A program made the translations under genes and the position numbers. From contig OZ024745.1 in assembly GCA_964016885.1 (NCBI GenBank), positions 73,284,001-73,348,000 on the forward strand: a stretch of DNA of 64,000 nucleotides. Direction: 5' to 3'. Within the stretch, counting starts at the first letter, position 1, and every line of letters begins with the position of its first letter. Below the pieces are notes generated by a model. The model saw only the letters and a list, made by a program, of their open reading frames with translations. It was not told the origin of the DNA and did not search any database. This stretch comes from Eledone cirrhosa. Its lineage: Eukaryota. Positions 3,328-64,000 of this stretch are shown one piece after another.

Positions 3328-3355
3328 TATATGTATATATATATATATGTATATA

Positions 3356-3424
<69 letters not shown>

Positions 3425-3473
3425 ATATATATATATATGTATATATGTATATATGTATATATATGTATATATG

Positions 3474-3506
<33 letters not shown>

Positions 3507-3919
3507 GTATATATGTATATATATGTATATATGTATATATGTATATATGTATATATATGTATATATGTATATATGTATATATATATGTATATATGTATAT
3601 ATATATGTATATATGTATATATATATGTATATATGTATATATGTATATATATATGTATATATGTATATATGTATATATATATGTATATATGTATATATAT
3701 ATGTATATATGTATATATGTATGTATGTATATATATATGTATATATATGTTTATATATATATATGTATATATATGTTTATATATATATATGTATATATAT
3801 GTTTATATATGTATATATATATATATGTATATATATGTATATATATATATATGTATATATATATGTATATATATGTATATATATATATATGTATATATGT
3901 ATATATATGTATATATATG

Positions 3920-7146: not shown

Positions 7147-7398
7147 ATGTATGTATATATGTATATATATGTATGTATATATATATATATATGTATGTAT
7201 ATATATGTATATATATATATGTATATATATGTATATATATGTATGTATATATATGTATATATATGTATATATGTATATATATATATATATGTATATATAT
7301 GTATATATATATGTATATATATGTATATATATGTATATATATGTATGTATATGTATGTATATATATGTATATGTATGTATATGTATATATATGTATAT

Positions 7399-8400: not shown

Positions 8401-8491
8401 AATACTGAACGAAGACAAATTCGAACTGATCCACTTTGGAAAAGAGGATGCTCTGAAACTCCAGTACTCCCTTCCCTCCGGGGAAACTCTC

Positions 8492-9181
8492 GTGGCATCT
8501 AACAACATCAGAGACTTGGGAGTAACCGTGGACAGCAACATAAGCTGGACCACGCATATAAGCAGCAAAGTTGACATGGCCCGCAAAATGTGTTCCTGGA
8601 TCCTCAGAACCTTCCAGTCGAGAGATTCCCGCACCATTATCCTTCTCTTCTCTACTTTCGCCCGACCACACCTTGAATACTGTTGTCCACTGTGGTCTCC
8701 CCACACGAAACAAAGTATCATGAAACTTGAAGCTCCTCAAAGGGCAATCACGAAAAAGATAGATGGCATGTCAGACCTTGACTACTGGGGTCGATTAGAA
8801 AACCTGAAACTTGACTCACTCCAACGTCGCCGTGAGCGTTATATTATCTGCATGATGTGGAAAATGTTCCATCATCACTGCCCAAATGATGTTGGCATCG
8901 CCTTCAAGATACACCCAATGCTTGGGCCCCGTGATATCCGTCCCATTCAAAAATCCAAATCGCAACTCATAACAACAATAGGGCACAATTATTTCACCTC
9001 AATCGGCCCTGCTCTCTTCAACATCACACCAGGACACGTCAAAACAGAAACTGACCACACAAAATTCAAGAAGTCTTTGGACAAATTCCTCCAAGTAATC
9101 CCGGACAAACCACCCACACCCGGATATGTCTCCGCAAACAGTAATTCTCTTCTCGAATGGGCCATGGTGCCCAAATCCTGA
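8492..9181 (+). pseudogene. C-terminal part of CR1-like ORF2
   Basis: Nearly identical to the last ~230 aa of 1108-2976. Confidence 0.88.
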
Positions 9182-16089: not shown

Positions 16090-16509
16090 ATATATATATA
16101 TATATCCATATATATATCCATATATATATATATCCATATATATATATATCCATATATATATATATCCATATATATATATATATCCATATATATATATATA
16201 TCCATATCCATATATATATCCATATATATATATATATCCATATCCATATATATATCCATATATATATATATATCCATATATATATATATCCATATCCATA
16301 TATATCCATATATATATATATATCCATATATATATATATCCATATATATATATCCATATATATATATATCCATATATATATATATCCATATATATATATA
16401 TCCATATATATATATATATATATATATATCCATATATATATATATATATATATATATCCATATATATATATATATATATATATCCATATATATATATATA
16501 TATATATAT

Positions 16510-16543
<34 letters not shown>

Positions 16544-16799
16544 ATATATATATATATATATATATATCCATATATATATATATATATCCATATATATATA
16601 TATATATCCATATATATATATATATATCCATATATATATATATGTATATCCATATATATATATATGTATATCCATATATATATATATGTATATCCATATA
16701 TATATATATATATATATCCATATATATATAAATATATATCCATATATATATAAATATATATCCATATATATATATATCCATATCCATATATATATATAT

Positions 16800-16838
<39 letters not shown>

Positions 16839-16879
16839 TATATATATATATATATCCATATATATATAAATATATATCC

Positions 16880-16912
<33 letters not shown>

Positions 16913-16947
16913 TATATACATATATCCATATATATATATATATATCC

Positions 16948-16978
<31 letters not shown>

Positions 16979-17209
16979 TATATATATATATATATATATA
17001 TATCCATATATATACATATATATATATATATTCATATATATATATATATATATATATCCATATATATATATATATATATCCATATATATATCCATATATA
17101 TATATATATATATCCATATATACATATATATATATCCATATATATATATATATATATATATCCATATATATATATATATATATATATCCATATATATATA
17201 TATATATAT

Positions 17210-27109: not shown

Positions 27110-28900
27110 TGGAAATGATCCAAGAACTCCGTACAGTATATCTCCCTATAAACGAAAGAATACACCCACCAAAGATAAAAATCAATAGTAAAATAGTAAT
27201 AACTACAAAAAATGTTAACATGGCCAACAAAGACTTAATTAGCACAAACGCAAACATTAGTATCGCAAGGCTAAATAAGATAATATATGCAGCAGCCACA
27301 GTTGTTACAAAAGAAAGTGGGTACTTCCTTAGATCTACAAAAACACGAATAACAAAACCCTCACAAGCATGGAAATCAAAGACACAAAAGAATTTAGAAC
27401 ATAAAAGAAAAAAAATCCACAAATCTTTAATGAAAAGTGTAGAAAATGAAAACATTAAAAAAATATATTACATAAAAGGAAATCACCGAATCTAAGAAAT
27501 GCCTAAAACATCAAATATTTGCAAATGTACAAAGAATCCAGAGATATGAAAAGTGCCAATAATTTTTGAACAAAACCAACAATTTCAATCCAAGCCAAAA
27601 CGATTCTACCAAGAACTTAATAGAAACAAAATAGAGGTAAATATAACCCCAAAGTAAAAGAAGTGGAAGAGTACAGAGTAGGGATGGTAGACAACAGAGG
27701 AATACTCATGTACATGAATAATTAGAACAACAAACACAACCTCTGAAGAACTATGGAAAGACATCACAACAGAAGATGTGTTTAACTCACTGAAAACAGA
27801 AAGCAACTGGAAAATGCCAGGACATGCCAAAATACCAAACTTCTGGATGAAATATTTAACAGGGACAGATAGTGTACTTTCAAAAAAGTTTAATGAGATA
27901 TTGTTGGTGCTAGAAATGACACTCGATTAGCTTACTATATAAAAAAAAAACACCCTGGTCCTCAGAAATAATGACACATTAACCCCAAAACTACAGCCCC
28001 AAAACATGCCCTTCTACAACCAAGTCTTTCTACAAGACTCTAACTGTAATACCATCACAGACACTGACCAAGCACGTGGAAAACCAACTTGTTTCCAGAA
28101 AAGTAGAAACGATGAGCTCATCCCAATTTACAGAGGGATATTGCAAGAGGACTACCTTTCTCCATTCCTTTTCTGCCTAGCACTGACAACATTATTTGAG
28201 ATAATAAGCAGGATTGGACTTGGTTATAAATGCTATAATACGAAAATTAACTATCTTCTGTATATGGATGATCTAAAGCTGTACGCTATAGATGAGACAC
28301 AACTTGAAACTCTGCTAAAGAATGTGCATGGATTCACAATAGAAATAATCATGACAATTGGATTAGAAAAATCTGCCAAGGCAACACTGAAGAGAGGAAA
28401 TATAGTGAATGTTTCTTATATCATGCTAGGTAAAGAAACTGAGATAAGGGAATTAGATGAAATACAGACATTCAAATACTTAGAAATCAATGAGCTAGAC
28501 GGGTTTTAACATACACAGATGGATTAAAGATTAGACAGGAATATTATAGACGGATTAAATTACTACATAAGACAGAACTAAATGCAAAGAATAAGGTAAT
28601 AGGCTACAGTTTTAACATTCTGAACTGGACACTAAAAGAACTAACAGGGCTAGACAGAAAAACAAGAAAAACAATAACTGCATTTAGAATACACCACCCA
28701 AAATCAGATGTAGAAAGAATATACCTACCACCAACACAAGGAGAAAGAAGTCTTATGCAACTAGAAAACTATTATAAAATTACCACTGTAGGACTACAAA
28801 AATAACTAAGAATAATGGAAAGTTAATACAAATGAAACATGAAGAAATAAAAATAAAATTGTTATCTATCTTCAAGGAATCCAACAAATTACTAAAGATA
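27110..28900 (+). pseudogene. Degenerate R4/Dong-like non-LTR RT
   Basis: RGILQEDYLSPFLFCLAL, LLYMDDLKLYA, GLEKSAK, FKYLEI; many stops and frameshifts; preceded by (AAT)n. Confidence 0.65.
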
Positions 28901-35092: not shown

Positions 35093-35304
35093 CAATATAT
35101 ACCAGTTTTATAAATAAACATTGACGTACCCTTTCAAAATGCAACCGTTACTTTTGGAAGACATCCTGATGTCTTCCAAAAGTATATTTACTCCAAATAC
35201 TTGTCGAGTGCTTTATATCAGTTATAAAAATATTTGCTTGTTGTATCCCAACAATTTAAATAGAACTTTTGCATATATATATATATATATTATATATATA
35301 TATT

Positions 35305-35695
35305 TGAATTGACCAATAGAAAAGTAGTAAGTGGTCAAGTTGATAGAATAGTAGTAGTAGAAATTTAATTTAGGGGTAGAGGAATGCAGACTTCAGTTTT
35401 GAATGGAAAGAATATTTTGAATGAAAAGATTACTTTGGGGATGAAAAGAGGTCAAGCCGGTGAAAGGTACACGAAAATTTGATGTTATTAAAGAATAATT
35501 CTAATGTTAAAATCGAAGGTGAATAAAATTTTAGGATGTGTTAGTGAGAAATACCAATCTTATTTAAAACATAAGGAATTTAGATCTATAAAAAGAAATT
35601 AAATTAATTTAATTGATAGGTATACTTATAGGGATAAATTTAAATTAATTCATATAGATGTTATTAAAAAATGTTGTTAAAAACGAAGGAAAATT
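35305..35695. repeat. Left arm of ~400-bp inverted repeat (partner 45138-45552)
   Basis: Near-perfect reverse complement of 45138-45552. Confidence 0.85.
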
Positions 35696-35731
35696 TTTTT
35701 TTTTAATATATATTTTTTTATATATATATAT

Positions 35732-35763
<32 letters not shown>

Positions 35764-35995
35764 ATATATATAATTAAGTTAAAAAAAAATTACATCTACA
35801 TATGCATACTGAAATACTAGTGTGTATATGAATACACACACGTATACATATGTATATGTAACAAGTCTTTCACTGGTTGCTTTACTGTGAGCACCCAGCT
35901 ATTCTGTATGTAAACAGACAGACAAACCGGTTTTTAGAGTCATACTGGTTTTTGAGGGAACACCTTCCCTCTATTCTCTAGAAAGCCAGACAAGG

Positions 35996-36040
35996 AATAT
36001 TGAACTAGTTTCGTTGTTGTTACAACTCATCAGCAATATT
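35996..36040 (-). ncRNA. Minimal type I HHR (representative of 3 reverse array copies)
   Basis: aatattg CTGATGA gttgt aaca acaac GAAA ctag TT caatatt. Confidence 0.88.
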
Positions 36041-37306
36041 TACCTATCTACCGGCCTTTCTGGAGAATTGTAAAAGCACATATCGTTATATGCTTTTTCC
36101 ATGAAAATTAGTAGTGGGCAGACTAATTTGCATAGAGTGTGAGTACGCACCGGTTCAGCGGAGACGATAAAAACAAATGACGAAACGAAATTAAATTTCG
36201 TTTCGTTTGTAACTCACTTTTGTATGACTGACGCTTAAACAATTAAGTTTAAAAAAAAAATTACATCTACATATGCATACTGAAATACTAGTGTGTATAT
36301 GAATACACACACGTATACATATGTATATGTAACAAGTCTTTCACTGGTTGCTTTACTGTGAGCACCCAGCTATTCTGTATGTAAACACACAGACAAACCG
36401 GTTTTTAGAGTCATACTGGTTTTTGAGGGAACACCTTCCCTCTATTCTTCAGAAAGCCAGACAAGGAATATTGAATTAGTTTCGTTGTTGTTACAACTCA
36501 TCAGCAATATTTACCTATCTACCGGCCTTTCTGGAGAATTGTAAAAGCACATATCGTTATATGCTTTTTCTATGAAAATTAGTAGTGGGCAGACTAATTT
36601 GCATAGAGTGTGAGTACGCACCGGTTCAGCGGAGACGATAAAAACAAATGACGAAACGAAATTAAATTTCGTTTCGTTTGTAACTCACTTTTGTATGATT
36701 GACGCTTAAACAATTAAGTTAAAAAAAATTACATCTACATATGCATACTGAAATACTAGTGTGTATATGAATACACACACGTATACATATGTATATGTAA
36801 CAAGTCTTTCACTGGTTGCTTTACTGTGAGCACCCAGCTATTCTGTATGTAAACACACAGACAAACCGGTTTTTAGAGTCATACTGGTTTTTGAGGGAAC
36901 ACCTTCCCTCTATTCTCCAGAAAGCCAGACAAGGAATATTGAACTAGTTTCGTTGTTGTTACAACTCATCAGCAATATTTACCTATCTACCGGCCTTTCT
37001 GGAGAATTGTAAAAGCACATATCGTTATATGCTTTTTCTATGAAAATTAGTAGTGGATAGGTAAATATTGCTGATGTAGATGTAATTTTTTTTTTTTAAC
37101 TTAATTGTTTAAGCGTCAGTCATACAAAAGTGAGTTACAAACGAAACGAAATTTAATTTCGTTTCGTCATTTGTTTTTATCGTCTCCGCTGAACCGGTGC
37201 GTACTCACACTCTATGCAAATTAATCTGCCCACTACTAATTTTCATAGAAAAAGCATATAACGATATGTGCTTTTACAATTCTCCAGAAAGGCCGGTAGA
37301 TAGGTA

Positions 37307-37351
37307 AATATTGCTGATGAGTTGTAACAACAACGAAACTAGTTCAATATT
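37307..37351 (+). ncRNA. Minimal type I HHR (representative of 11 forward array copies)
   Basis: 7-bp stem I, intact core, 5-bp stem II with G10.1-C11.1, palindromic AACTAGTT stem III, GUU cleavage triplet. Confidence 0.9.
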
Positions 37352-40300
37352 CCTTGTCTGGCTTTCTGAAGAATAGAGGGAAGGTGTTCCCTCAAAATCC
37401 AGTATGACTCTAAAAACCGGTTTGTCTGTGTGTTTACATACAGAATAGCTGGGTGCTCACAGTAAAGCAACCAGTGAAAGACTTGTTACATATACATATG
37501 TATACGTGTGTGTATTCATATACACACTAGTATTTCAGTATGCATATGTAGATGTAATTTTTTTTTTTAACTTAATTGTTTAAGCGTCAGTCATACAAAA
37601 GTGAGTTACAAACGAAACGAAATTTAATTTCGTTTCGTCATTTTTATCGTCTCCGCTGAACCGGTGCGTACTCACACTCTATGCAAATTAGTCTGCCCAC
37701 TACTAATTTTCATGGAAAAAGCATATAACGATATGTGCTTTTACAATTCTCCAGAAAGGCCGGTAGATAGGTAAATATTGCTGATGAGTTGTAACAACAA
37801 CGAAACTAGTTCAATATTCCTTGTCTGGCTTTCTAGAGAATAGAGGGAAGGTGTTCCCTCAAAAACCAGTATGACTCTAAAAACCGGTTTGTCTGTGTGT
37901 TTACATACAGAATAGCTGGGTGCTCACAGTAAAGCAAACAGTGAAAGACTTGTTACATATACATATGTATACGTGTGTGTATTCATATACACACTAGTAT
38001 TTCAGTATGCATATGTAGATGTAATTTTTTTTTTAACTTAATTGTTTAAGCGTCAGTCATACAAAAGTGAGTTACAAACGAAACGAAATTTAATTTCGTT
38101 TCGTCATTTGTTTTTATCGTCTCCGCTGAACCGGTGCGTACTCACACTCTATGCAAATTAGTCTGCCCACTACTAATTTTCATAGAAAAAGCATATAACG
38201 ATATGTGCTTTTACAATTCTCCAGAAAGGCCGGTAGATAGGTAAATATTGCTGATGAGTTGTAACAACAACGAAACTAGTTCAATATTCCTTGTCTGGTT
38301 TTCTGGAGAATAGAGGGAAGGTGTTCCCTCAAAAACCAGTATGACTCTAAAAACCGGTTTGTCTGTGTGTTTACATACAGAATAGCTGGGTGCTCACAGT
38401 AAAGCAACCAGTGAAAGACTTGTTACATATACATATGTATACGTGTGTGTATTCATATACACACTAGTATTTCAGTATGCATATGTAGATGTAATTTTTT
38501 TTTTAACTTAATTGTTTAAGCGTCAGTCATACAAAAGTGAGTTACAAACGAAACGAAATTTAATTTCGTTTCGTCATTTGTTTTTATCGTCTCCGCTGAA
38601 CCGGTGCGTACTCACACTCTATGCAAATTAGTCTGCCCACTACTAATTTTCATAGAAAAAGCATATAACGATATGTGCTTTTACAATTCTCCAGAAAGGC
38701 CGGTAGATAGGTAAATATTGCTGATGAGTTGTAACAACAACGAAACTAGTTCAATATTCCTTGTCTGGCTTTCTGGAGAATAGAGGGAAGGTGTTCCCTC
38801 AAAAACCAGTATGACTCTAAAAACCGGTTTGTCTGTGTGTTTACATACAGAATAGCTGGGTGCTCACAGTAAAGCAACCAGTGAAAGACTTGTTACATAT
38901 ACATATGTATACGTGTGTGTATTCATATACACACTAGTATTTCAGTATTCATATGTAGATGTAATTTTTTTTTCTAACTTAATTGTTTAAGCGTCAGTCA
39001 TACAAAAGTGAGTTACAAACGAAACGAAATTTAATTTCGTTTCGTCATTTGTTTTTATCGTCTCCGCTGAACCGGTGCGTACTCACACTCTATGCAAATT
39101 AGTCTGCCCACTACTAATTTTCATAGAAAAAGCATATAACGATATGTGCTTTTACAATTCTCCAGAAAGGCCGGTAGATAGGTAAATATTGCTGATGAGT
39201 TGTAACAACAACGAAACTAGTTCAATATTCCTTGTCTGGCTTTCTGGAGAATAGAGGGAAGGTGTTCCCTCAAAAACCAGTATGACTCTAAAAACCGGTT
39301 TGTCTGTGTGTTTACATACAGAATAGCTGGGTGCTCACAGTAAAGCAACCAGTGAAAGACTTATTACATGTACATATGTATACGTGTGTGTATTCATATA
39401 CACACTAGTATTTCAGTATGCATATGTAGATGTAATTTTTTTTAATTTTTTTTTGACTTAATTGTTTAAGCGTCAGTCATACAAAAGTGAGTTACAAACG
39501 AAACGAAATTTAATTTCGTTTCGTCATTTGTTTTTATCGTCTCCGCTGAACCGGTGCGTACTCACCCTCTATGCAAATTAGTCTGCCCACTACTAATTTT
39601 CATAGAAAAAGCATATAACGATATGTGCTTTTACAATTCTCCAGAAAGGCCGGTAGATAGGTAAATATTGCTGATGAGTTGTAACAACAACGAAACTAGT
39701 TCAATATTCCTTGTCTGGCTTTCTGGAGAATAGAGGGAAGGTGTTCCCTCAAAAACCAGTATGACTCTAAAAACCGGTTTGTCTGTGTGTTTACATACAG
39801 AGTAGCTGGGTGCTCACAGTAAAGCAACCAGTGAAAGACTTGTTACATATACATATGTATACGTGTGTGTATTCATATACACACTAGTATTTCAGTATGC
39901 ATATGTAGATGTAATTTTTTTAACTTAATTGTTTAAGCGTCAGTCATACAAAAGTGAGTTACAAACGAAACGAAATTTAATTTCGTTTCGTCATTTGTTT
40001 TTATCGTCTCCGCTGAACCGGTGCGTACTCACACTCTATGCAAATTATTCTGCCCACTACTAATTTTCATAGAAAAAGCATATAACGATATGTGCTTTTA
40101 CAATTCTCCAGAAAGGCCGGTAGATAGGTAAATATTGCTGATGAGTTGTAACAACAACGAAACTAGTTCAATATTCCTTGTCTGGCTTTCTAGAGAATAG
40201 AGGGAAGGTGTTCCCTCAAAAACCAGTATGACTCTAAAAACCGGTTTGTCTGTGTGTTTACATACAGAATAGCTGGGTGCTCACAGTAAAGCAACCAGTG

Positions 40301-42344
40301 AAAGACTTGTTACATATACATATGTATACGTGTGTGTATTCATATACACACTAGTATTTCAGTATGCATATGTAGATGTAATTTTTTTTTTTAACTTAAT
40401 TGTTTAAGCGTCAGTCATACAAAAGTGAGTTACAAACGAAACGAAATTTAATTTCGTTTCGTCATCTGTTTTTATCGTCTCCGCTGAACCGGTGCGTACT
40501 CACACTCTATGCAAATTAGTCTGCCCACTACTAATTTTCATAGAAAAAGCATATAACGATATGTGCTTTTACAATTCTCCAGAAAGGCCGGTAGATAGGT
40601 AAATATTGCTGATGAGTTGTAACAACAACGAAACTAGTTCAATATTCCTTGTCTGGCTTTCTGGAGAATAGAGGGAAGGTGTTCCCTCAAAAACCAGTAT
40701 GACTCTAAAAACCGGTTTGTCTGTGTGTTTACATACAGAATAGCTGGGTGCTCACAGTAAAGCAACCAGTGAAAGACTTGTTACATATACATATGTATAC
40801 GTGTGTGTATTCATATACACACTAGTATTTCAGTATGCATATGTAGATGTAATTTTTTTTTTAACTTAATTGTTTAAGCGTCAGTCATACAAAAGTGAGT
40901 TACAAACGAAACGAAATTTAATTTCGTTTCGTCATTTGTTTTTATCGTCTCCGCTGAACCGGTGCGTACTCACACTCTATGCAAATTAGTCTGCCACTAC
41001 TAATTTTCATAGAAAAAGCATATAACGATATGTGCTTTTACAATTCTCCAGAAAGGCCGGTAGATAGGTAAATATTGCTGATGAGTTGTAACAACAACGA
41101 AACTAGTTCAATATTCCTTGTCTGGCTTTCTGGAGAATAGAGGGAAGGTGTTCCCTCAAAAACCAGTATGACTCTAAAAACCGGTTTGTCTGTGTGTTTA
41201 CATACAGAATGGCTGGGTGCTCACAGTAAAGCAACCAGTGAAAGACTTGTTACATATACATATGTATACGTGTGTGTATTCATATACACACTAGTATTTC
41301 AGTATGCATATGTAGATGTAATTTTTTTTTTAAAACTTAATTGTTTAAGCGTCAGTCATACAAAAGTGAGTTACAAACGAAACGAAATTTAATTTCGTTT
41401 CGTCATTTGTTTTTATCGTCTCCGCTGAACCGGTGCGTACTCACACTCTATGCAAATTAGTCTGCCCACTACTAATTTTCATAGAAAAAGCATATAACGA
41501 TATGTGCTTTTACAATTCTCCAGAAAGGCCGGTAGATAGGTAAATATTGCTGATGAGTTGTAACAACAACGAAACTAGTTCAATATTCCTTGTCTGGCTT
41601 TCTGGAGAATAGAGGGAAGGTGTTCCCTCAAAAACCAGTATGACTCTAAAAACCGGTTTGTCTGTGTGTTTACATACAGAATAGCTGGGTGCTCACAGTA
41701 AAGCAACCAGTGAAAGACTTGTTACATGTACATATATATACGTGTGTGTATTCATATACACACTAGTATTTCAGTATGCATATGTAGATGTAATTTTTTT
41801 AACTTAATTGTTTAAGCGTCAGTCATACAAAAGTGAGTTACAAACGAAACGAAATTTAATTTCGTTTCGTCATTTGTTTTTATCGTCTCCGCTGAACCGG
41901 TGCGTACTCACACTCTATGCAAATTATTCTGCCCACTACTAATTTTCATAGAAAAAGCATATAACGATATGTGCTTTTACAATTCTCCAGAAAGGCCGGT
42001 AGATAGGTAAATATTGCTGATGAGTTGTAACAACAACGAAACTAGTTCAATATTCCTTGTCTGACTTTCTGGAGAATAGAGGGAAGGTGTTCCCTCAAAA
42101 ACCAGTATGACTCTAAAAACCGGTTTGTCTGTGTGTTTACATACAGAATAGCTGGGTGCTCACAGTAAAGCAACCAGTGAAAGACTTGTTACATATACAT
42201 ATGTATACGTGTGTGTATTCATATACACACTAGTATTTCAGTATGCATATGTAGATGTTATTTTTTAAAACTTAATTGTTTAAGCGTCAGTCATACAAAA
42301 GTGAGTTACAAACGAAACGAAATTTAATTTCGTTTCGTCATTTG

Positions 42345-42413
<69 letters not shown>

Positions 42414-42593
42414 GTTTGAGGTTCACCACTGGTCAATTCCGTATGGTCAATCGCAATGTAATAATATAGAGAGTACTCAACGTAAAGCAGTTCAACGGTC
42501 TTTGTTTTTGTAGTTGGTGGTGCTATTACGGAGTTAAATATTATAATGAAATGACAGGAGGCTGGATTTGTGTAAATCCTTGAAAGGTTTATT

Positions 42594-42651
42594 ATACTAT
42601 GATCATTTCAATGACCGGGTTCCGTATGAATCTGGTGATATCATCAGGTAT
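42594..42651 (-). ncRNA. Type I hammerhead ribozyme
   Basis: atac CTGATGA tatcaccag..ccggtcatt GAAA tgatca TA gtat. Confidence 0.65.
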
Positions 42652-44999
42652 TCGAAATATAATAAGTGAATGTAATAGATAAAATCCATGGGGCTGAAAA
42701 TCAAGGACCCGAGGGCGACCGCCGTCCAGCATCTTCCACCTTTGCCGGTCGCCCTCGAGTGACGTGGCTAAAGCTTACAGTGTGCTACTACCGGTCAAAT
42801 AAAGGAAAACAGAAAGGGATGGGAACATAAGTTAGCGTTCATATCATGCCACAAGAAAAAAGAAAGAAAGAAAGAAGAGAGAAGAAGGGGTAAGGAAGAA
42901 GAAGAGAAGCCAGGGTTAATGTCAGCTATAAGAAGAAAGACAGAAAGAAAGAGGAGGAAAGGTCGGTATTACAGTCAGGCCAGGATTGTCGCGAAGAATT
43001 TTTTTATTCTAAGGGACCCGTATCTTAACAACTACTACCGGTCAAATATAGGCAAACAAAAAGGGGAAGGAAGATAAGTCAGCGGGAGGAAGACAGAAAG
43101 AATGGAGAAGAGAAGGAAGAAAAGGAAGAAGTAGAAAAGTCAGGGTTGATGGCTACAAGAAGAAAGATAGAAAGAAAGAAAGGTCGATATTAATGTCAGA
43201 CTACAGTCAGGCCAGGAGTGGCGCGAAAAAAAATGTTCACAGGGACCCGTATCTTAGCAGAGGTAAATATAGTGGGGGTCAGTGTGTTATAATGTGTGAG
43301 CAGGAGATTGGAACGTTACGTTTTTGTTTAGACTTATAGGATGAAGTTAAAAATTAATATTTAATATTAAAGAAATTAGATAATTTTAAGTTAAACTGTT
43401 TAACATTTTTAAGGTTGCGAGGTTTAGGCAAAGAAAGAGTCTTTTATGAAGACACTTAAATTTTATTATAGAGTAAAGATTATGTCTTTGTTTAGCCGTC
43501 AAACATCATGCGGCGACTACAACCTTGGGCAGCCCAGCCCATCACTCCGAGTGATATCGCCTAGTGAAAGATATGGAAATCGATTTTTCCGAGCACTCTA
43601 GGAATGTATAACAGGCTTCAGTGGCGCCAGCAGGAAGTCAGCCCGCATCGTTAGGCCATTCTTGTACAAAACCAGTACTATTCCTTTACCCAGGAGGGGT
43701 TGCTTAAGTAGAGGGAGGCGTGATATATCTAATAGTTTTGATTTGATCTGTAATTTAAAGGTACTATGTGGCGGTTAAAAAACCGGCTGCACGCCGGGCC
43801 CCTGGGGCGAATCAAGCCACTCCGAGTAGTTTCATTTACCGAAAGAAGGGGAAATTTATTTTTCCAAGCATTCCAGGTAGGCCTATGCGCCAGGGGGCCG
43901 GTCCCGCCGCCAGGAAAACCAACCCAACAGTCCGACAGAAAGTTGGAGCGTTAAAATATTGTTTAAATTTATAGGATGAAGTTGAAAGAATTCAGAATAA
44001 CATTATAAGATTAAAGAGTAAGAAGATTGAGAATTGAACAAACAAAAAATGGAAAATTAAACATTTAAAAAAACTTTTTTAAGGTTTTAGGTTGCGGGGT
44101 TTAGTTAAAGAGAGTCTTTTATGAAGAAACATTAATTGTATTATGTAGATCTTCTATAATTTATCCTAGTGGGATGTAGAGTAAGGGATATAGTCGGGTA
44201 ATATTTATTTTTGTTCTCAGGGGGAGACATTCTAGTATCGTGTGCTAATGGGTACACGTGAGCAAAAGTCCCAATAAGAGGAGTAGAAATACATGGATAC
44301 ATAGAAGTGGAATACGTGGAAAAGCACATTGATAAAGCAAAGGTATAAATATATAAATATATAAATATAAATATATAAATAAACCAAAAAGAGTGGTGGT
44401 AGAGTAAGATGGAGAAATCAAGACATAGGAGAAATACAATATAGTTCAGGTTGCAGTATTTATGTTCCCAGGGGGAGACATTCCAGTGTCGTGTGCTAAG
44501 GGTACACGCGAGTAAAAGTCCGAATAAGGGAAGTAAAAATTACATGGATGTATAGAAGTAGAATACGTGGAAAAAGCATTAATACAGCAAAGGTATAAAG
44601 ATATAAATAAACAACCAAGAGTGGTGGTGGAGTAAATGGAGAGATCAAGACACAGGAGAAATACAATTTAGTTCAAGTTGCAGTCAGATAATGCATATAG
44701 ATGTGGAAATGGAATCAGTGTGTGTTCGAGCCTGGGAGTTCAATGTGAGTTATACATGCCCAGAAGTATAGGGTAGCGAATTTAGTTAATACAGTGCAGT
44801 ACAATACATGTTATGGTATAATCCGTAGAATTTCGTCGAAGTCTGAATATTCTGAGAGGGAAGTAGCAATGGGCCAGGTGGGCGGTAGGCAAAAACACTG
44901 GGTAGCCAAAATCCGAATGGTGGTTAGATATATTCAGTCCCATGCCGCTGTTCATTATTACATTTGTAAGTGCTCAACATTTCAGGAGCATTATTTCGA

Positions 45000-45057
45000 A
45001 TACCTGATGATATCACCGGATTCATACAGAACCCGGTCATTGAAATGATCATAGTAT
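45000..45057 (+). ncRNA. Type I hammerhead ribozyme
   Basis: atac CTGATGA tatcaccgg..ccggtcatt GAAA tgatca TA gtat; palindrome ATGATCAT. Confidence 0.7.
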
Positions 45058-45103
45058 AATAAACCTTTCAAGGATTTACACAAATCCAGCCTCCTGTCAT
45101 TTC

Positions 45104-45137
<34 letters not shown>

Positions 45138-45142
<5 letters not shown>

Positions 45143-45552
45143 TGTTTTCCTTCGTTTTTAACAACATTTTTTAATAACATCTAACTCTTATTTATCACAT
45201 CTATATGAATTAATATAAATTTATCCCTATAAGTATACCTATCAATTAAATTAATTTAATTTCTTTTTATAGATCTAAATTCCTTATGTTTTAAATAAGA
45301 TTGGTATTTCTCACTAACACATCCTAAAATTTTATTCTCCTTCGATTTTAACATTAGAATTATTCTTTAATAACATCAAATTTTCGTGTACCTTTCACCG
45401 GCTTGACCTCTTTTCATCCCCAAAGTAATCTTTTCATTCAAAATATTCTTTCCATTCAAAACTGAAGTCTGCATTCCTCTACCCCTAAATTAAATTTCTA
45501 CTACTACTATTCTATCAACTTGACCACTTACTACTTTTCTATTGGACAATTT
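45138..45552. repeat. Right arm of ~400-bp inverted repeat (partner 35305-35695)
   Basis: Reverse-complement match. Confidence 0.85.
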
Positions 45553-45620
45553 AAAACCTGTTCCCAAACAGACCTATTATATTAAATCTTTGTTGGTTTT
45601 TTTCATTAAGCAAATATCAT

Positions 45621-46402
45621 TATTTCTGAGTGGCAGTGAATTGGCAGTATCGGTAGAGGGTCTGACGCCATGCTTTCCAGCAAAGTTACGTCCCTTTACG
45701 GTCTGAGTTCAAATCCGGCCGAGGTTAACTTTGCCTTTCATCCTTACGGGGTCGATAAAATAAAGTACCAGTAATGTACTGGGTAATTGCTGGCCTTGTG
45801 CCTAAAATAGAAACAATTATTTCTGAGTGGCAGTGGATTGGCAGTATCGGTAGAGGGTCGGACGCCATGGTTTGATGCATAGAGTTACGGCCCTTGCCAT
45901 TCTGAGTTCAAATCCCGCCGGGGTTAACTTTGCCTTTCATCCTTACGGGGTCGATAAAATAAAGTACCAGTAATAAACTGGGCAATTGCTGGCCTTGTGC
46001 CAAAAGTAGAAACAATTATTTCTGAGTGGCAGTATCGGTAGAGGGTCGGACGCCATGCTTTGACGTATAGAGTTACAGCCCTTGCCATTCTTAGTTCAAA
46101 TCCCGCCGAGGTTAACTTTGCTTTTCATCCTTACGGGGTCGATAAAATAAAGTACCAGTAATGTACTGGGTAATGTACTGGCCTTGTGCCAATAGTAGAA
46201 ACAATTATTTGTGAGTGAATTGGCAGTATCGGTAGAGGGTCGGATATGCTTTCTAGCATAGTTATGTCTTTTTATGATCTGATTTCAAATCCCGTCGAGG
46301 TTAACTTTGCCTTTCATCCATACGGGGTCGATAAAATAAAGTACCAGTAATGTACTGAGTAATTGCTGGCCTTGTGCCAAAAGTAGAAACAATTATTTCT
46401 GA
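45621..46402 (+). mobile_element. Head-to-tail tetramer of a ~195-bp tRNA-SINE (Deu/Nin-like core)
   Basis: Four units, each with tggcagtatcggtag (A-box-like), a gttcaaatcc-type B box and the core ttcatccttacggggtcgataaa. Confidence 0.8.
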
Positions 46403-51926: not shown

Positions 51927-52538
51927 TGATATGTGGTGACAGTCGAGTTTGCAATTTTCAACTGTAATGAGATGGGTAAATTTACTACCTTTTATACATT
52001 TTATACAGAGAAAAGTGGCTCCAGAATGCAAAGCCCTGTAAACTGTATTTCGACAAATCAGTGTGTAGTTTCACTGAATTACTACAGCTGATTGGTTTAA
52101 GCGCCACGGCTGGTTGAGCATGCTAACGACCAATAGTCATACCCAACGTATCAATTGTTTTGCTTTTTGAAATGATGAAAATAGCATTTTCTATTAATCA
52201 TCACCATCAACATCACTTTTATTATTATTATTATTGTTGTTGTTGTTGTTGTTGTTGTTGTTAGTGGTCGTGGTCATAGTGGTAGTAGAAGTAATACCCC
52301 TAGGCGTTATTATTGTTCATTTAGCTTGGGTTTGAATTTATCAATAAAATTCTTTTCTTTGATTTTTCTCTTGATTTCACTTGGGCTGTGTAATTTGTAG
52401 AATGGGAATATTATAAATATTCCCTGACCACATGTTGCCAGGTGGCCGCTTAGGGCTATCTGACGGACATTTGGGTCTCTGATTTGTTGACGGTGTACCC
52501 GTGCACGTTCCGATAGTGCATTTCCAGTTGACATTATT

Positions 52539-54014
52539 TTGAAACCACTATGTATTCACATACCCAGTTTCATCCGGGATGATATCGACTTCCTGTCCCA
52601 TCTTCCCAAAACCACGGAAACGAATTCACTTCTACTCAGTTTTGATGTGGTAAGCCTTTACACCAACATTACACATGATTTAGGAATAAAGGCGGTTAAA
52701 TACTGGGTGGAAAAACATAGAGAAGTGATTCCCATTAGATTCACAGCGCCATTTATATTAGACGCAGTTAAACTTATTCTGGAAAACAACACTTTCTTCT
52801 TCAATGGAAAGAATTACATCCAAATTAGAGGCACAGCGATGGGAACGAAGTTTGCTCCCGTTTACGCGAACTCTGTAATGGGATACTTAGAACAACAACT
52901 CTACGAAGAAATAGAGGAAAAATATAGTACTGACTTTAGAAAGTACATTGAAAAATCTTGGAAGAGATACCTTGACGACTGTTTCATCATCTGGACAGAA
53001 TCTCTAGATACTCTGGATGAGTTCAATATCCTCCTGAATAACCTACACCCATCTCTCCAATTCACAAAAGAGATGAGTAGGACCAAATTACCATTCCTAG
53101 ATATAATGATAATCAAAAACGACACCACCATTACCACGGATATATATTTTAAACACACAGACACCCATCAATATCTGAATTTTAAGTCATGCCATCCACC
53201 TCATACAAAACGCAACATCCCATACTGCCTAGCCAGAAGAATTTGTACCATTGTAGAAGATACGAATACCAGGTACAAACGCCTAACAGAACTAAGAGAA
53301 TTTTTGCTCAAACAAAAATACCCATCTCTACTTATAGAAAATGGCATACAGCGGGCTATAAAAATACCTATACAACAACTTAGAACAAACCAAGGAAGAA
53401 GAAACCAAGAACTGGTCATACCATTTATAATGACACACAACCCATGTCACCAGAATATCTTCAACACTGCCAAAGCAAACCTACCGATCATTGCTCAAAG
53501 TAATGAATTAAAAGGCTTAATCACAGATCGATCTTTGACTCTTAGTAAAAGACAGCCAAAAAATTTGAAGCAATTGCTAACAAAAGTAAAGTTTGACATT
53601 AACAACAAAGACCAATCATTTACTGTATCTAAATGCAATGATAATCGATGCGGCACATGTCAATCCATACACGCCGGTCAATATATGAAAACAAAAACTG
53701 GAAAAATATTCCCAAATGCAAATATGAACTGCAAAAGCAGAAATCTAATTTACTGCATTAAATGCCCGAATTGTGAAGAACTATATGTCGGTCAAACTGG
53801 AAATGCACTATCGGAACGTGCACGGGTACACCGTCAACAAATCAGAGACCCAAATGTCCGTCAGATAGCCCTAAGCGGCCACCTGGCAACATGTTGTCAG
53901 GGAATATTTATAATATTCCCATTCTACAAATTACACAGCCCAAGTGAAATCAAGAGAAAAATCAAAGAAAAGAATTTTATTGATAAATTCAAACCCAAGC
54001 TAAATGAACAATAA
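52539..54014 (+). CDS. PLE reverse transcriptase + GIY-YIG endonuclease (N-truncated, otherwise open)
   Basis: SFDVVSLYTNI, GTAMG, RYLDD, LPFLD, CHPPHTK, CNDNRCGTC, LIYCIKC..C..LYVGQT..R...H. Confidence 0.9.
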   Translation: MKPLCIHIPSFIRDDIDFLSHLPKTTETNSLLLSFDVVSLYTNITHDLGIKAVKYWVEKHREVIPIRFTAPFILDAVKLILENNTFFFNGKNYIQIRGTAMGTKFAPVYANSVMGYLEQQLYEEIEEKYSTDFRKYIEKSWKRYLDDCFIIWTESLDTLDEFNILLNNLHPSLQFTKEMSRTKLPFLDIMIIKNDTTITTDIYFKHTDTHQYLNFKSCHPPHTKRNIPYCLARRICTIVEDTNTRYKRLTELREFLLKQKYPSLLIENGIQRAIKIPIQQLRTNQGRRNQELVIPFIMTHNPCHQNIFNTAKANLPIIAQSNELKGLITDRSLTLSKRQPKNLKQLLTKVKFDINNKDQSFTVSKCNDNRCGTCQSIHAGQYMKTKTGKIFPNANMNCKSRNLIYCIKCPNCEELYVGQTGNALSERARVHRQQIRDPNVRQIALSGHLATCCQGIFIIFPFYKLHSPSEIKRKIKEKNFIDKFKPKLNEQ

Positions 54015-54397
54015 TAACGCCTAGGGGTATTACTTCTACTACCACTATGACCACGACCACTAACAACAACAACAACAACAACAACAATAATAATAATAAT
54101 AATAAAAGTGATGTTGATGGTGATGATTAATAGAAAATGCTATTTTCATCATTTCAAAAAGCAAAACAATTGATACGTTGGGTATGACTATTGGTCGTTA
54201 GCATGCTCAACCAGCCGTGGCGCTTAAACCAATCAGCTGTAGTAATTCAGTGAAACTACACACAGATTGGTCGAAATACAGTTTACAGGGCTTTGCATTC
54301 TGGAGCCACTTTTCTCTGTATAAAATGTATAAAAGGTAGTAAATTTACCCATCTCATTACAGTTGAAAATTGCAAACTCGACTGTCACCACATATCA

Positions 54398-54436
54398 TGA
54401 ACCTGAAGATTGCGAAAGCATGAAAGTACTTGTTCA
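54398..54436 (+). ncRNA. Minimal type I HHR (3' pLTR)
   Basis: tgaac CTGAAGA t tgc gaaa gca t GAAA gtac TT gttca. Confidence 0.8.
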
Positions 54437-54622
54437 ATTAACACTTAGAATTTAATATTCTATCATACTATTTCATTATAATACCATATTATATATATTT
54501 TAAAGGATTGTAAATAAAACGAGTAAATCAGACAAAGTTGGAATTCCTCTTATTAATATAATCTTCTATACACAATCATACACACCCGTGTATATTTACC
54601 TATCTATATCTATATCTATCTA

Positions 54623-58087: not shown

Positions 58088-58093
<6 letters not shown>

Positions 58094-59908
58094 ATACTTG
58101 GGGAGGGTCATATTTGCGTAATATTGCCAGAATTAATAACAGAACACACTCACTGTTTGGTTGGTTTTCGCTTCTCGCTGTCTTTTATATCTGCGATCTA
58201 ACTTACTCGGTCCTCAATGTTGCCATTGACTGACCGTCGGTCAAAAATAATACAGATACAATATAGACACAAACACATATATATAATTTACATAATTTAC
58301 ATAAATCTTTCGTTGCACATCTGCAACATCGTCAGTGGTGTTATATTCTTTGTTCCTCCTGTTGTGTTGTATGTCTACGCCATTTTTTTTTTATTCAGTC
58401 TGTCTATATATTTATTTATTTATTTGCTTGTTTGTTTATCTTATTTTATTTTGTCTTCTTTGCGCATGCGTTTGCGTGTGTGTATAGTGTTATGTGTGCT
58501 GTGTGACTAGTGTGTATAGTGTTGTGTCTGCTGGGTGACTAGTGTGTGTTTATGTGCTTGTTGTTATTGTGCTTGTGTATGTATTTATTTATCTTATTTT
58601 ATTTTATTTTATTTACTTATTTATACTTCTCTTAGGTCAGTGTTGTTTGTTTGGGTGTTGTTGTTGTTCCACTCATTCTTTCTGTTTAGCTTTGGTCTTC
58701 TAATTTCTATTTCACTGGCCTCTCTGATTTGCCTATCTGCTGGGTCATTCCTATGTTTAGATATTATTCTAATTTCTATGCTGTCTATGTTACCGTCATG
58801 TTGTTGTCTAGCATGTTCGTATAGTACTGACCCGTTTTTTCGTCCTTTTAGTTCCCCCCAGTGTTGGTCTATCCTTTCACCTATGCTACGAGCTGTCTCA
58901 CCTATGTATGTTGTTGTCATGTTTCTGCAAGTACCCTCTGTACATCTTATGCTATAGACTACGTTTCTAGTTTAACAGTTTATCCGGGGGTTCACCTTAC
59001 ATATGATACATTTCCTATTGGTACAGTGGGTTTTCTTAAAAGGGTAGGTTTTGCTGATCATGGATTTTATGGTGGTTCCTGGCTTTTCTACCACCTTTAT
59101 TTTTAAGTGGGTCTTTCTCAGGGCCTTTCTACACTGGTTAGCTAATTTCCCTCCAGGGGTGGCGTCCACAAACATGACACTCTGATATCTCTGGTTGTCG
59201 TACCATGATGTGGCCTTCCCTATCTTATGTCTAGCCCTATCTAAGCTATTCCATGATTTGCTCCTGTATAGTGGGCAAATTCCTTTCATGTCCTGTTCTA
59301 TGAGGGTCTTATACTTTTCCATGGCTCCTTCGTATACTCTGACTCTGTCTCTTTGGTTGTAGCCAGAGAACTGCATGCGGTTGATGAAGTGTTGGATGTG
59401 TCTTTCCATTTCTGTTAGGTCGCACATGCTGGACACATTCTTCATCACTCGTACCAAATCTGCGATCAGAATATTAAACTTAGCACTACTGGACATTGCT
59501 GAGTTTTTGAGTATCAGGTATTTGGAGGCCATGGGTTTAGCATAGTGTGAGTGGAGAATTTGGGCTCTCTCGTCTATAGTGTTAATCCAGAGTTCTGTGT
59601 CTAATACAGGTAGTCTATTGTTAGGGTGTTTGGAAGGGAAGTCGATAGTTACAGTTATACTCTGGTGTATGGAATTAGCTATCTGCTGGATGCTTTCCAT
59701 CGTGCTACGTTCTAAATCAAACTTGTTAGTGCTCTCTAGTGGGGGTGTTCTTATAACTATATTGATATCGTCTACATAACGAGAGTACATGATGAGGTCT
59801 ATGGAGCTTTCATTAAGGAGATCTTTAAGTCTCCTTTCCCACCATACCATGAAAAGGTTGGCAACATCACCAGCTATGCTGACGCCGATGGCTGCTCCCT
59901 CATTTTGG

Positions 59909-59910
<2 letters not shown>
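58088..59910 (-). mobile_element. Penelope-like element, 5'-truncated in RT, both ends in (TA)n; relative of 9764-10803
   Basis: RT + GIY-YIG ORF; HHR-like motif at ~58298-58339 (CTGACGA t gttgca gatg tgcaac GAAA); terminus gaccctccccaagtataacaa. Confidence 0.85.
58621..59910 (-). pseudogene. PLE RT + GIY-YIG with one premature TAA at 58972
   Basis: Q.EGAAIG.S...[41 protein letters not shown]. Confidence 0.85.
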
Positions 59911-59958
<48 letters not shown>

Positions 59959-59965
59959 GTATGCA

Positions 59966-60038
<73 letters not shown>

Positions 60039-60159
60039 CTATGTATGTATGTATGTATGTATGTATGTATGTATGTATGTGTATATATGTGCGTACGCGT
60101 GTCTATATGTATGTATATGTGTACGTTTGAATGTGTGTATGCGTGTGTATGCATGAGAG

Positions 60160-61586: not shown

Positions 61587-61645
<59 letters not shown>

Positions 61646-61677
61646 AGATCAAAAGATGGTTAAAGGAGTTCCATATA

Positions 61678-61744
61678 TTTTATTATGCGCATTTCAAAAA
61701 CAAACATCATCAAGCAATAATATTTGTGTTTTCATCAGATAAAA
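61678..61744 (-). ncRNA. Type I HHR in pLTR
   Basis: ttttat CTGATGA aaacacaaata..tgtttgttttt GAAA tgcgca TA ataaaa. Confidence 0.72.
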
Positions 61745-62731
61745 CAGGAGAACATGATATGAAGGCTAAAAAACACTTGTTGATAGTGCAGTTTTAAATC
61801 AACATATGAAAAGTGGTTTTAGATTGATGTGTGATATTGGGAAAAATATTTTATTTAGAGAGGGGGGGGGGGAAGGATGAGAAGGGAAGGGGATGAGAGG
61901 GAGAGATGGGTGATAGAGAGAAAGAGATAGTTTTTATAACTGAGAGGAGATATATTTTTTATATAGAGGGGTTGAAAACCGTTGGAAGATACTGTATAAA
62001 TTAAAAATTTTGAAAATTAACGAAGGGAGGATATGTGCGAGGAAAAATATTTTATTTAGGGAGGGGGGGGGGAAGGATGAAAAAAAGGGGGAGGAGATGA
62101 GAGTGAAGGTGGAGAGGGAGAGATGGGTGATAGAGAGAAAGAGATAGTTTTTATAACTGAGAAAAAGATATATTGTTTTAATATAGAGAGGTTGGGAACC
62201 GTTGGAAGATAATGTATAAATTAAAGGAATTTGAAAATTAACGAAGGGAAATTATGTATGAAGATAGAGAGAAGAAAATAATAATTGTGGGTGAATATTC
62301 TAACGTCAAAAGAAGAAATGTATGTATTGTGGCTATTTCAAAATTAGCGAAGAGAGAAATGTTAAGGTTTATGTGTAGAAGGATTTGAGAAAAATAATGT
62401 GAAGTTAAAGTTTGTATATTGAATTCATATGTATTAATAATGAGTTCGTTGATGGGGAGAAAAAAATAAATAATAATAAATTAAGGATGAAATTGAGATT
62501 AAAAAGATTTATGATAGAGAGAAAAAATAATAATGATTGCGGATGAATATTCAAAAAGTCAAAAACAAATGTTATTGTTTTACGAGAAGATAGAATGAGG
62601 GTAATGAGTAAACGAGTATTATAGAGTGTATAATGCCCTTTAAAGTAAGGTAAGGTAGATGGGTATATTTTAAAGAGGTGTATGTATATGTGCCTTTGAG
62701 AAAAGATTCTAAATTGATAAAGAATTGAATA

Positions 62732-63640
62732 TTAACTGTATACTTTGTGAAAAGTTCTATGGAATTTATGCAGGCAGATAGAAAACAAATCTGAGCGTCT
62801 ATTTATTATGGATTCTAGGTTAGAGATAATGGTAAATTTTTCATTTAGGCAGAGATTACAGATTTTAGATAGAGAGCTGTTCAAGTATGAGGATGCAGAA
62901 GAAATCTTTTTCCAAAAGATGCTATATTTAATGTTTTTGTCTTTTAAGGACCATATGAGTTCTGAGAGAGCAGTGTTAGTTCTTTTAAGTTTGTATTTGA
63001 AAGATGAATGATGATTATAGAGACGAGCTTTAAAAGAGGTGGAAGTGGAGCCAAAATAGGTGAAGGAATTGGTGCTAGTTATAATTTTACATTCATAAAT
63101 TAAGTTTTTATCGAGGCAATGGTTGTTGAGAGGACATTTATTTTTAATGCGGCAGTTGCAATTAGAGAGATTATTAATGAGTGATCTAGTGTTATCTATA
63201 GAAGGAATTGGATTGGAGAAGTTGTTTGCGATAGGAATAATAGGAATAATAGTTTCTTGATTTAGAGTTGGATTATGAACATTTAGCGAAGTTGTGTTTG
63301 ACGTTGTATTTGGGTTTACAGAAGTTAGCCTAGGGTTTACAATGACGTCGGGAGTACTATTACTGTTATTATGAAATTCAATATTGGAAGGAAGAGATTT
63401 AGTATTTAATATTTTGTTGTTGTGTTTAGAGATGATGTTGGAAATATTGGAGGATGTAGAATACGAAAATTTGATGGTGTGTTTGTTAAATATTTTACTA
63501 TAGATATGTGAGGGAGGGAAGCATTTATTTAAGACACTAAAAAATAATTTAGGAATATTGTTATTAATAGAGATGGAGAAAGGAGCATTATACCAGATTA
63601 TGTTTTTGTATCTAGGTCTTTTATTAAAATTATTGGAATG
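62732..63640 (-). pseudogene. PLE linker + GIY-YIG (no ATG, absent from ORF track)
   Basis: Hand translation: IIWYNAPFS..KFSYST..LIYECKI..YFGSTSTSFKARLYNH..ICNLCLNE; homologous to 48120-49160. Confidence 0.75.
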
Positions 63641-64000
63641 GTTATGAACAGCTCATACTTGAACAGCTCTCTATCTAAAATCTGTAATCTCTGCCTAAAT
63701 GAAAAATTTACCATTATCTCTAACCTAGAATCCATAATAAATAGACGCTCAGATTTGTTTTCTATCTGCCTGCATAAATTCCATAGAACTTTTCACAAAG
63801 TATACAGTTAATATTCAATTCTTTATCAATTTAGAATCTTTTCTCAAAGGCACATATACATACACCTCTTTAAAATATACCCATCTACCTTACCTTACTT
63901 TAAAGGGCATTATACACTCTATAATACTCGTTTACTCATTACCCTCATTCTATCTTCTCGTAAAACAATAACATTTGTTTTTGACTTTTTGAATATTCAT

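Follow-up and report, generated by a model that had tools for sequence, protein, structure and literature searches.

The window analyzed here is a 64,000-nucleotide stretch of the Eledone cirrhosa genome (GenBank assembly GCA_964016885.1, contig OZ024745.1, positions 73,284,001 to 73,348,000, forward strand), and coordinates refer to it unless another contig is named. It contains a 6.6-kb array of tandem units of about 470 nt, each with one hammerhead ribozyme, which an initial annotation had put forward as a young retrozyme family integrated as one multimer. Tandem Repeats Finder (TRF) resolves the array into two blocks that coincide with the two arms in Table 1 (period 471, 2.7 copies, and period 467, 11.2 copies), and a core search recovers 14 hammerhead cores, 11 on the + strand and 3 on the - strand. 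The annotated coordinates, unit size, motif and core count were thereby confirmed, as were the bounding (AT)n and (TA)n tracts and the non-coding nature of the units, with no stop-to-stop frame of at least 120 aa lying within the array. Thirteen of the 14 cores pass the type I descriptor, and the exception, 36504(-), where CTAA replaces CTAG, is the single reverse copy in which a stem III change had been noticed.

The array comprises 12 complete and 4 partial units, divided between two opposed arms in which the 3' ends of the ribozyme strand point outward. Integration as one multimer, as first proposed, does not describe this layout, which instead has two arms with two different fixed ends. 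Units are numbered from u1, the first base past the predicted cut (38282 in the 470-nt reference unit). The arms join through 20 bases from u426-445 with a 3-base microhomology, and this filler looks, from its sequence, like a brief template switch or a microhomology join. Unit GC is ~0.35. Across the mapped loci we saw no LTR-type (long terminal repeat) anatomy, primer binding sites and polypurine tracts not having been searched for; the insertion ends sit in (AT)n, where target-site duplications, which in non-LTR retrozymes exceed 4 bp when present, are unreadable. We conclude that the array is an insertion of a dispersed, non-coding, non-LTR retrozyme, an element type that is already known and whose features it displays in every test with a clear outcome.

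Table 1. Positions of the array components and of the truncated Penelope-like elements (PLEs) in the window. RT, reverse transcriptase.
Feature	Position	Strand	Remarks
Left (AT)n tract	35706..35772	.	Adjoins short-end arm; TRF and sequence
Left arm, 2.7 units, ribozyme sense leftward	35772..37056	-	Outer end u232 (tail-less), inner end u356
Junction filler, 20 bases from u426-445 (ribozyme 5' half)	37057..37076	+	ATG common with right-arm start; sequence
Right arm, 11.2 units	37074..42351	+	Inner end u202, outer end u306 (tailed)
Reference-unit type I hammerhead	38233..38304	+	CUGAUGA core at 38251; predicted cleavage after GUU at 38281
Other + hammerhead cores	37314, 37781, 38721, 39192, 39671, 40138, 40609, 41078, 41550, 42017	+	
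hammerhead cores	36033, 36504 (stem III variant), 36972	-	
Hairpin u338-374	38619..38655	+	Best-conserved non-repetitive block between families A and B; site of genome-wide A>G excess
'Tail' u238-306, ~70 nt	42283..42351	+	Only at right outer end; 12-bp hairpin just before end
Right (TA)n tract	42349..42409	.	TRF
Truncated PLE with RT and GIY-YIG, minimal hammerhead at 54403, ending in (TA)n	52491..54606	+	Outside array; no unit homology; enzyme class that of the putative helper
Truncated copy of very young PLE-like family, candidate helper	58089..60102	-	~1,217-aa frames elsewhere; two ends ~55 nt apart
Truncated copy of second young PLE-like family, candidate helper	61645..63652	-	821-aa frames elsewhere; hammerhead 61738; ends ~86 nt apart

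The ribozyme fits Rfam Hammerhead_HH9 across all 77 model positions (E 1.7e-8, 39.4 bits), a match that lies under the gathering score of 52; at gathering score, no Rfam family is found anywhere in the window. The hammerhead has a 7-bp stem I, a further helix past an internal loop and a 5-bp stem II, while helix III consists of one pair and the palindromic loop CUAG. Judged by this predicted pairing and by the end-to-end HH9 match, it is an extended type I hammerhead in which only helix III is reduced, rather than the minimal form first assigned to it. A fold prediction for two copies pairs the CUAG palindromes. Folded as a circle, the unit has a predicted energy of -155 kcal/mol (z -13.0, 40 shuffles) with 69% of bases paired and the hammerhead forming across the junction; the other strand gives z -7.3. 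At core positions, 2 of 756 cells differ between loci, compared with 737 of 24,898 elsewhere in the unit, and stems I and II covary, with double changes between subfamilies that keep the pairing. The core is therefore more conserved than the remainder of the unit, the opposite of what had been named as evidence against the retrozyme reading.

The unit is not confined to this locus. The exact 30-nt core occurs 5,212 times in the genome and not once in a reversed control, which excludes chance, and arrays are dispersed genome-wide. Among the matches listed (40 of 732 candidates scored), the unit lies on many contigs at 95-100% identity, and these near-identical loci agree with the earlier view of the family as a non-LTR retrozyme that is young, dispersed and integrated in (TA)n. 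A pattern with another stem II base gave 4,331 further matches, and 99 of the first 100 belong to a subfamily, A2, defined by a double change in stem II; one A2 arm has 31 units. A sister family, B (~440 nt; 16,934 pattern matches, of which the first 100 are all of this family), retains the core and CUAG, has both stems changed with pairing kept, and carries GUA at the cut; ATGCAAAT is conserved in families A and B. Family B often sits beside family A in the same (AT)n tracts and has the same two-arm anatomy (examples are L051:3040-3525, L038, L073 and L081-L105). Searches with CUAG-type hammerhead patterns (first 100 matches each) returned A2, B and a small number of stray hits. Of five such hits that we inspected, one is family B, and four show neither a PLE protein match nor a unit match beyond AT-rich sequence. 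Contigs from four runs, of unrecorded kind and including two other organisms, cover most of the unit, those of the two other organisms with few differences, which speaks to presence only; the head-to-tail joint is present in contigs of three of the four.

One further family B locus, L174 (G000:C3:12270500-12280400), is a long degenerate array with irregular 470-600 bp spacing and G at the cleavage position. Its hammerheads are, by their sequence, probably inactive, and it looks like a retrozyme turned ordinary satellite. A snRNA-type (small nuclear RNA) promoter within the unit was also considered. Self-promoting satellites of this type, such as newt satellite 2, share an octamer and a proximal element with snRNA genes. 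The U2 snRNA genes of this genome are tandem (~2.2-kb spacing; L156-L159, L168-L169), with a common motif near -58 to -27 and no octamer upstream. The six U2 upstream regions contain no octamer and no unit match beyond chance, leaving such a promoter unsupported.

The outer ends of the arms recur at the same two positions across the loci mapped. We took a census of ends in all 27 loci among the first 100 core matches on one contig (C1), unselected for shape. Ends at u304-307 were found at 26 of the 27 loci and ends at u231-237 at 22, and both were present in opposed arms at 21, nearly always against AT-rich microsatellite. Several second arms are only 10-20 nt long. In a script-based mapping of 113 arms, 55 end at u304-307, 46 at u231-238 and 12 elsewhere; nine of these 12, at u469-470, resemble missed terminal pieces. 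Contigs of run X1 likewise switch to (AT)n at u306. Neither fixed end coincides with the predicted cleavage site. In family B the ends fall at the equivalent sites, separated by 57 nt, with the long end present at 25 of 25 loci, under a query that favoured it, and the short end at 8 of 25.

Inner ends behave differently from outer ones. Arm lengths range from under one to about 31 units, and inner breakpoints are uniform, with 2 of 88 falling no more than 5 nt from the cleavage site, where 1.9 would be expected (Kolmogorov-Smirnov p 0.16). Among 295 unit junctions caught by pattern, 275 are identical, 18 carry substitutions and 2 lack a base. Taken together, uniform inner ends and precise junctions indicate that RT does not run off at the cut, and hence that the template was closed or uncut. 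The tail-less arm is the longer one in 13 of 37 two-armed loci and is therefore not a fold-back copy; fold-back copying of the first arm is ruled out by these independent arm lengths.

This anatomy resembles that of PLEs. The PLE of Anolis carolinensis (Poseidon) initiates reverse transcription in vitro at a pair of neighbouring internal sites that lie downstream of the hammerhead cut, and its endonuclease nicks both strands of AT-rich DNA, which explains the tail (PMC11167929). PLEs of the Neptune, Naiad and Hydra groups form partial tandems with an inverted 5'-truncated copy, a (TA)n bias and a 30-40 bp tail at one end (PMC8557442). The arrays share with PLEs the two adjacent starts past the cut, the AT-rich or (TA)n target, the inverted 5'-truncated copy and the one-end tail, and by analogy their ends are the two-start-site 'tail' footprint of Penelope. 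The suggestion that Penelope-type machinery mobilises the units is accordingly strengthened by their two fixed internal ends, inverted truncated arm and tail. Unlike PLEs, the unit has no open reading frame (ORF), its starts lie 232-237 and 306 nt past the cut, its tail is ~70 nt, both arms are multimers of a closed unit, and the hammerhead is extended rather than minimal. Autonomous PLE-like families in this genome have the same anatomy with tails of ~37, 45, 55, 61 and 86 nt, and for that reason a ~70-nt tail is ordinary here.

A comparison can also be drawn with twin priming of L1 elements, in which both target strands prime on the RNA to produce an inversion joined by microhomology; there the position of the second site varies, and the inverted segment derives from upstream with hardly any overlap. 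Our arrays resemble L1 twin priming in their two primings and inversion, and differ in that the second site is fixed and both arms repeat the whole unit.

Substitutions within the arrays point to an RNA intermediate. We counted as private those changes that are fixed in all units of an array and present in at most one other sampled locus. Of 21 such changes (10 distinct sites, 9 loci), 12 are A>G and 2 are T>C on the ribozyme strand. The 20-unit array L053 carries A>G at u340, 344 and 345 in all 19-20 covering units of both arms, and L067, L041 and L059 show single fixed A>G changes. For an edit cluster to occur in every unit of both arms, the RNA must have passed through a bottleneck of one unit, for which repeated reading of one circle is the simplest explanation. 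Genome-wide, the hairpin u338-367 has 5,180 exact copies. Permitting G at its four 5'-side A adds 246 copies and at its four 3'-side A another 141; permitting G at all nine A adds 1,897, of which ~1,510 come from one site that may be a subfamily mark, whereas C at its ten T adds 35. Per site, A>G in the hairpin exceeds T>C ~14-fold, in a region picked after edits had been noticed there (at L053) and with array units that are not independent counts. In the ribozyme core the same test gives A>G 47 over 12 A and T>C 16 over 7 T. Within-array minority changes are unbiased (18 A>G, 16 T>C), and this, together with the contribution of the single site and the choice of region, tells against an editing interpretation. 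Sense RNA edited by ADAR would yield an excess of A>G that is specific to one strand and limited to a long helix. On the sequence pattern, the A>G marks are likely to be ADAR editing of ribozyme-sense RNA. The family spreads through RNA.

Haplotypes were compared across 61 loci with hypervariable tracts masked. Units differ by 0.51% within an arm, 0.41% across the arms of a locus and 4.02% between loci; opposed arms share one haplotype. At L023 and L053 the internal difference is 0.00% over 33,048 and 38,020 compared sites. In the window array, a unit bearing 25A and 373G followed by a unit bearing 24A is an order common to both arms, which is weak evidence because u24-27 is a recurrent hotspot. 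Positions u24-27 (38305-38308) show recurrent within-array G>A or G>T at 4-8 independent loci per site. Within arrays, G>A outnumbers C>T (47 vs 24, p 0.013); this excess and the u24-27 hotspot could be RT error or deamination of single-stranded cDNA.

The family can be set beside several known systems. Metazoan non-LTR retrozymes of coral, mussel and axolotl (Rtz331/Rtz353) have units of 150-450 bp, with cleavage and circles demonstrated (PMC7229834). Like them, the units described here are non-coding and tandem, with GC <50%, one type I hammerhead each and a self-paired predicted RNA; they differ in their length of 470 nt, in the GUU triplet and in being known from sequence alone. Helix III of the unit, one pair and a palindromic tetraloop, is built like that of axolotl HHR_Amex1, a ribozyme that needs to be dimeric to cleave well (PMC7229834). 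We found no description of opposed two-arm insertions, of a pair of fixed internal ends or of A>G marks in PMC7229834, in whose main text the word 'inverted' occurs 0 times.

Vertebrate non-LTR retrozymes are considered PLE derivatives on the basis of co-occurrence and homology to PLE pseudo-LTRs (pLTRs), and have units of 51-972 bp (10.64898/2026.07.22.740005). A 470-nt unit falls within that range, and the large unit stressed at the outset is consequently no novelty. The present arrays, like the vertebrate ones, are non-autonomous, PLE-dependent and monomer-to-multimer; unlike them, the case for PLE dependence rests on the insertion footprint, with no homologous pLTR among those compared. 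Local tandem amplification is favoured for the vertebrate elements, whereas here uniform edited arrays point, at some loci, to multimers made during reverse transcription. Algal non-autonomous elements of the Chlamys type, such as MRC1, are described as having 3' ends in common with their autonomous family, in a clade said to have no canonical hammerheads (PMC8557442). MRC1 elements are likewise non-autonomous PLE clients in multicopy head-to-tail insertions; our family differs from them in its hammerhead in every unit and in lacking partner homology in the PLEs compared. In their main texts, PMC7229834 and 10.64898/2026.07.22.740005 present PLE mobilisation, which the former proposes for metazoan retrozymes, and circle-templated tandem cDNA as proposals without insertion-level evidence. 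Our literature searches, which did not extend to subscription papers or to the supplements of PMC7229834 and 10.64898/2026.07.22.740005, returned no two-armed, fixed-end or edited retrozyme insertions, nor this family.

We are confident that the family is a PLE-driven retrozyme with two-site priming. A fuller reading, which we hold to be reasonably probable, is that the array was inserted from ribozyme-sense RNA by Penelope-like two-site priming in (TA)n, probably on circles; on the template itself, we lean towards circles as the main one. In this mechanism, arrays would be transcribed in the ribozyme sense, as the strand-specific A>G marks suggest, and hammerheads would cut the multimers into 470-nt units, probably as dimers formed through the CUAG palindrome, by analogy with related ribozymes. 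A ligase would close the units into circles, as in other retrozymes, and ADAR would likely edit their double-stranded stems. A Penelope-like RT/GIY-YIG enzyme would then nick both (TA)n strands, and each nicked strand would prime its own cDNA, one at u306 and the other ~70 nt upstream (u232-237), positions that correspond to the observed fixed ends. Each RT would run upstream through the cleavage/ligation junction without stopping, for under one to ~31 units, and the two cDNA ends would be joined to each other at positions set by chance, frequently through microhomology, which would produce the observed opposed arms with their tails outward. The most specific form of this proposal has a PLE RT/endonuclease dimer reading a single ADAR-edited, ribozyme-made circle from two sites 70 nt apart for up to tens of turns. 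We put this double rolling-circle reaction forward tentatively, as an idea whose chances fall a little short of even.

Several observations weigh against the mechanism as a whole or against its circular template. The GUU triplet and one-pair helix III put the predicted cleavage in doubt, and when variable sites rather than differences are counted, the core (2 of 11) is not clearly lower than the rest (104 of 359). Among Xenopus retrozymes, 8 of 9 dimers did not cleave (10.64898/2026.07.22.740005), and hammerhead cleavage is not needed for PLE insertion in vitro (PMC11167929). At ~70 nt, the tail is longer than the published 30-40 bp. A search of 50 GIY-YIG loci and the families of the window revealed no PLE, parent or helper, whose ends are homologous to the unit. 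The window array itself differs by 0.76% within arms and 0.86% across them, while its nearest other loci differ by 0.70-0.75%. With units ~0.8% apart, a single-circle origin is not supported for this array: the rolling-circle copying envisaged in the initial annotation finds support in some uniform sister arrays, but not in the one for which it was proposed. What served as template at this locus was either a single unit, aged or prone to error, or else RNA of a mixed or multimeric kind. In L031 and L037 the two arms are as much as 3.3-3.4% apart. Repeats of period 4 occur in L024 and of period 2 in L063, and in L166 nested haplotypes are mixed with no period. These L024, L063 and L166 patterns could come from circles of several units, from multimers that were never cut, from jumps between molecules or from DNA duplicated afterwards. 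Finally, zero-difference arrays could be the product of smoothing by assembly. The 31-unit A2 arm at L166-L167 (G000:C1:5738327-5752443), in which a few linked variants recur without a period, is the best locus to separate template jumping from DNA-level shuffling.

Many of these same points favour a version in which Penelope two-site priming acts on long uncut multimeric transcripts, the hammerhead serves RNA turnover or is baggage, and arms lengthen by unequal crossing-over. Heterogeneity of the window array, the period-4 and period-2 blocks, the nested haplotypes of the 31-unit arm, the weak-looking GUU ribozyme, the dispensability of cleavage for the anole PLE in vitro (PMC11167929) and the local tandem amplification proposed for vertebrates (10.64898/2026.07.22.740005) would all be accommodated. 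We nevertheless regard it as unlikely, if the most serious of the rivals. Clustered A>G changes in every unit of both arms at L053, and the single ones at L067, L041 and L059, need a one-unit RNA bottleneck; just 2 cross-locus pairs among 72 multi-variant units share at least 2 variants, so source haplotypes are rarely passed on; and both arms of L023 and L053 would have to expand separately with no new mutation. Jumping of RT from end to end within a pool of hammerhead-cut linear monomers would explain the non-periodic mix of few unit haplotypes in L166 and the one family B locus of 25 (L098) that starts exactly at the cleavage site. The lack of a breakpoint excess at that site (2 of 88) and the precision of the junctions (2 of 295 without a base and, among those caught by pattern, none with added bases) speak against such jumping, and uniform edited arrays would require reuse of one molecule, making this template improbable.

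The remaining alternatives dispense with a mobile unit of this kind. If the units were pLTR debris of an ordinary autonomous PLE, their anatomy would be exactly that of PLE ends, as observed, and Xenopus retrozymes do match PLE pLTRs (10.64898/2026.07.22.740005). Yet the limits of the repeat block are set by fixed ends of its own, (AT)n or unrelated flank (at the 27 C1 loci and others mapped), the units join head to tail as closed 470-mers, and no homology was found to window PLEs or to the 3' regions of 50 GIY-YIG loci (9 clusters; 10,597 candidates); we think this origin very improbable. Still harder to sustain is a plain satellite spread at the DNA level, by unequal exchange or circular DNA, with an incidental ribozyme. 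Tandem near-identical units and some block duplications are what such a satellite would show, but fixed ends and strand asymmetry contradict it, as seen in dispersed short arrays with two fixed ends and variable inner ends, strand-specific A>G and covarying stems. Retrozyme insertion by two-site priming, probably on circles, is accordingly the reading we retain.

As the array has no RT or GIY-YIG ORF, we do not file it as an autonomous PLE, and the class of its helper, a putative Penelope-like RT/GIY-YIG enzyme, is drawn from the insertion footprint by analogy. The helper PLEs expected nearby are present in the sense that young PLEs lie in the window; they share no sequence with the unit. In the truncated element with a minimal hammerhead, the RT and GIY-YIG fragment spans 52491-54014. 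The ~1,217-aa family (25,691 candidates, 99% identical) has an asparagine-rich N-terminal part and only a weak Pfam match, to RVT_1, and occurs as 4.1-kb tandems and inverted pairs. The 821-aa family has no Pfam match and was assigned by motifs and anatomy. The unit showed no sequence in common with the PLE families in the rest of the window, and none with the 3' regions of 50 GIY-YIG loci in 9 clusters, fetched from 150 scored among 10,597 candidates. A 15-base stretch, u423-437, matches one PLE 3' end in reverse (E 0.03-0.4); the match is absent from family B and was dismissed as chance. In clusters L106, L112 and L120, several PLE families with RT and GIY-YIG seem to lack an ordinary hammerhead in the stretch from the endonuclease to the first (AT)n, a tentative observation, as internal (AT)n truncated some of the 3' regions.

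Other elements surround the array. Adjoining it at 42410-45117 is a tail-out element with opposed hammerheads at 42647(-) and 45004(+), a long stem II and a palindromic loop, which lies inside the inverted pair 35303-35734 / 45104-45555. Insertions of PLE type thus accumulate in shared (TA)n tracts. Related hammerheads, with a long stem II and six-base helix III palindromes, lie at 20187(+), 35084(-) and 61738(-), the last belonging to the 821-aa family. Further RT/endonuclease fragments lie at 1108-3750(-), 14284-17031(-), 7108-8502(+) and 27943-28509(+), one of them with a PHD finger; several such fragments in the window end in very long (AT)n. A 188-bp tandem repeat occupies 45619-46402.

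These findings link two questions that the papers cited leave open, namely how retrozymes return from RNA circles to DNA and how the tandem and inverted insertions of Penelope elements arise. Thousands of young insertions bear a two-start-site footprint known in vitro from a Penelope enzyme. With precise start positions, a small template and young candidate enzymes to work from, the rolling-circle model can be put to a direct test. If double rolling-circle reverse transcription is correct, these arrays would be the first evidence, at the level of insertions, for the life cycle that has been proposed for retrozymes, and the 470-nt unit would offer a circular substrate for programmable concatemer insertion. 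The pseudo-LTRs, tandems and inversions of PLEs may then arise in the same way.

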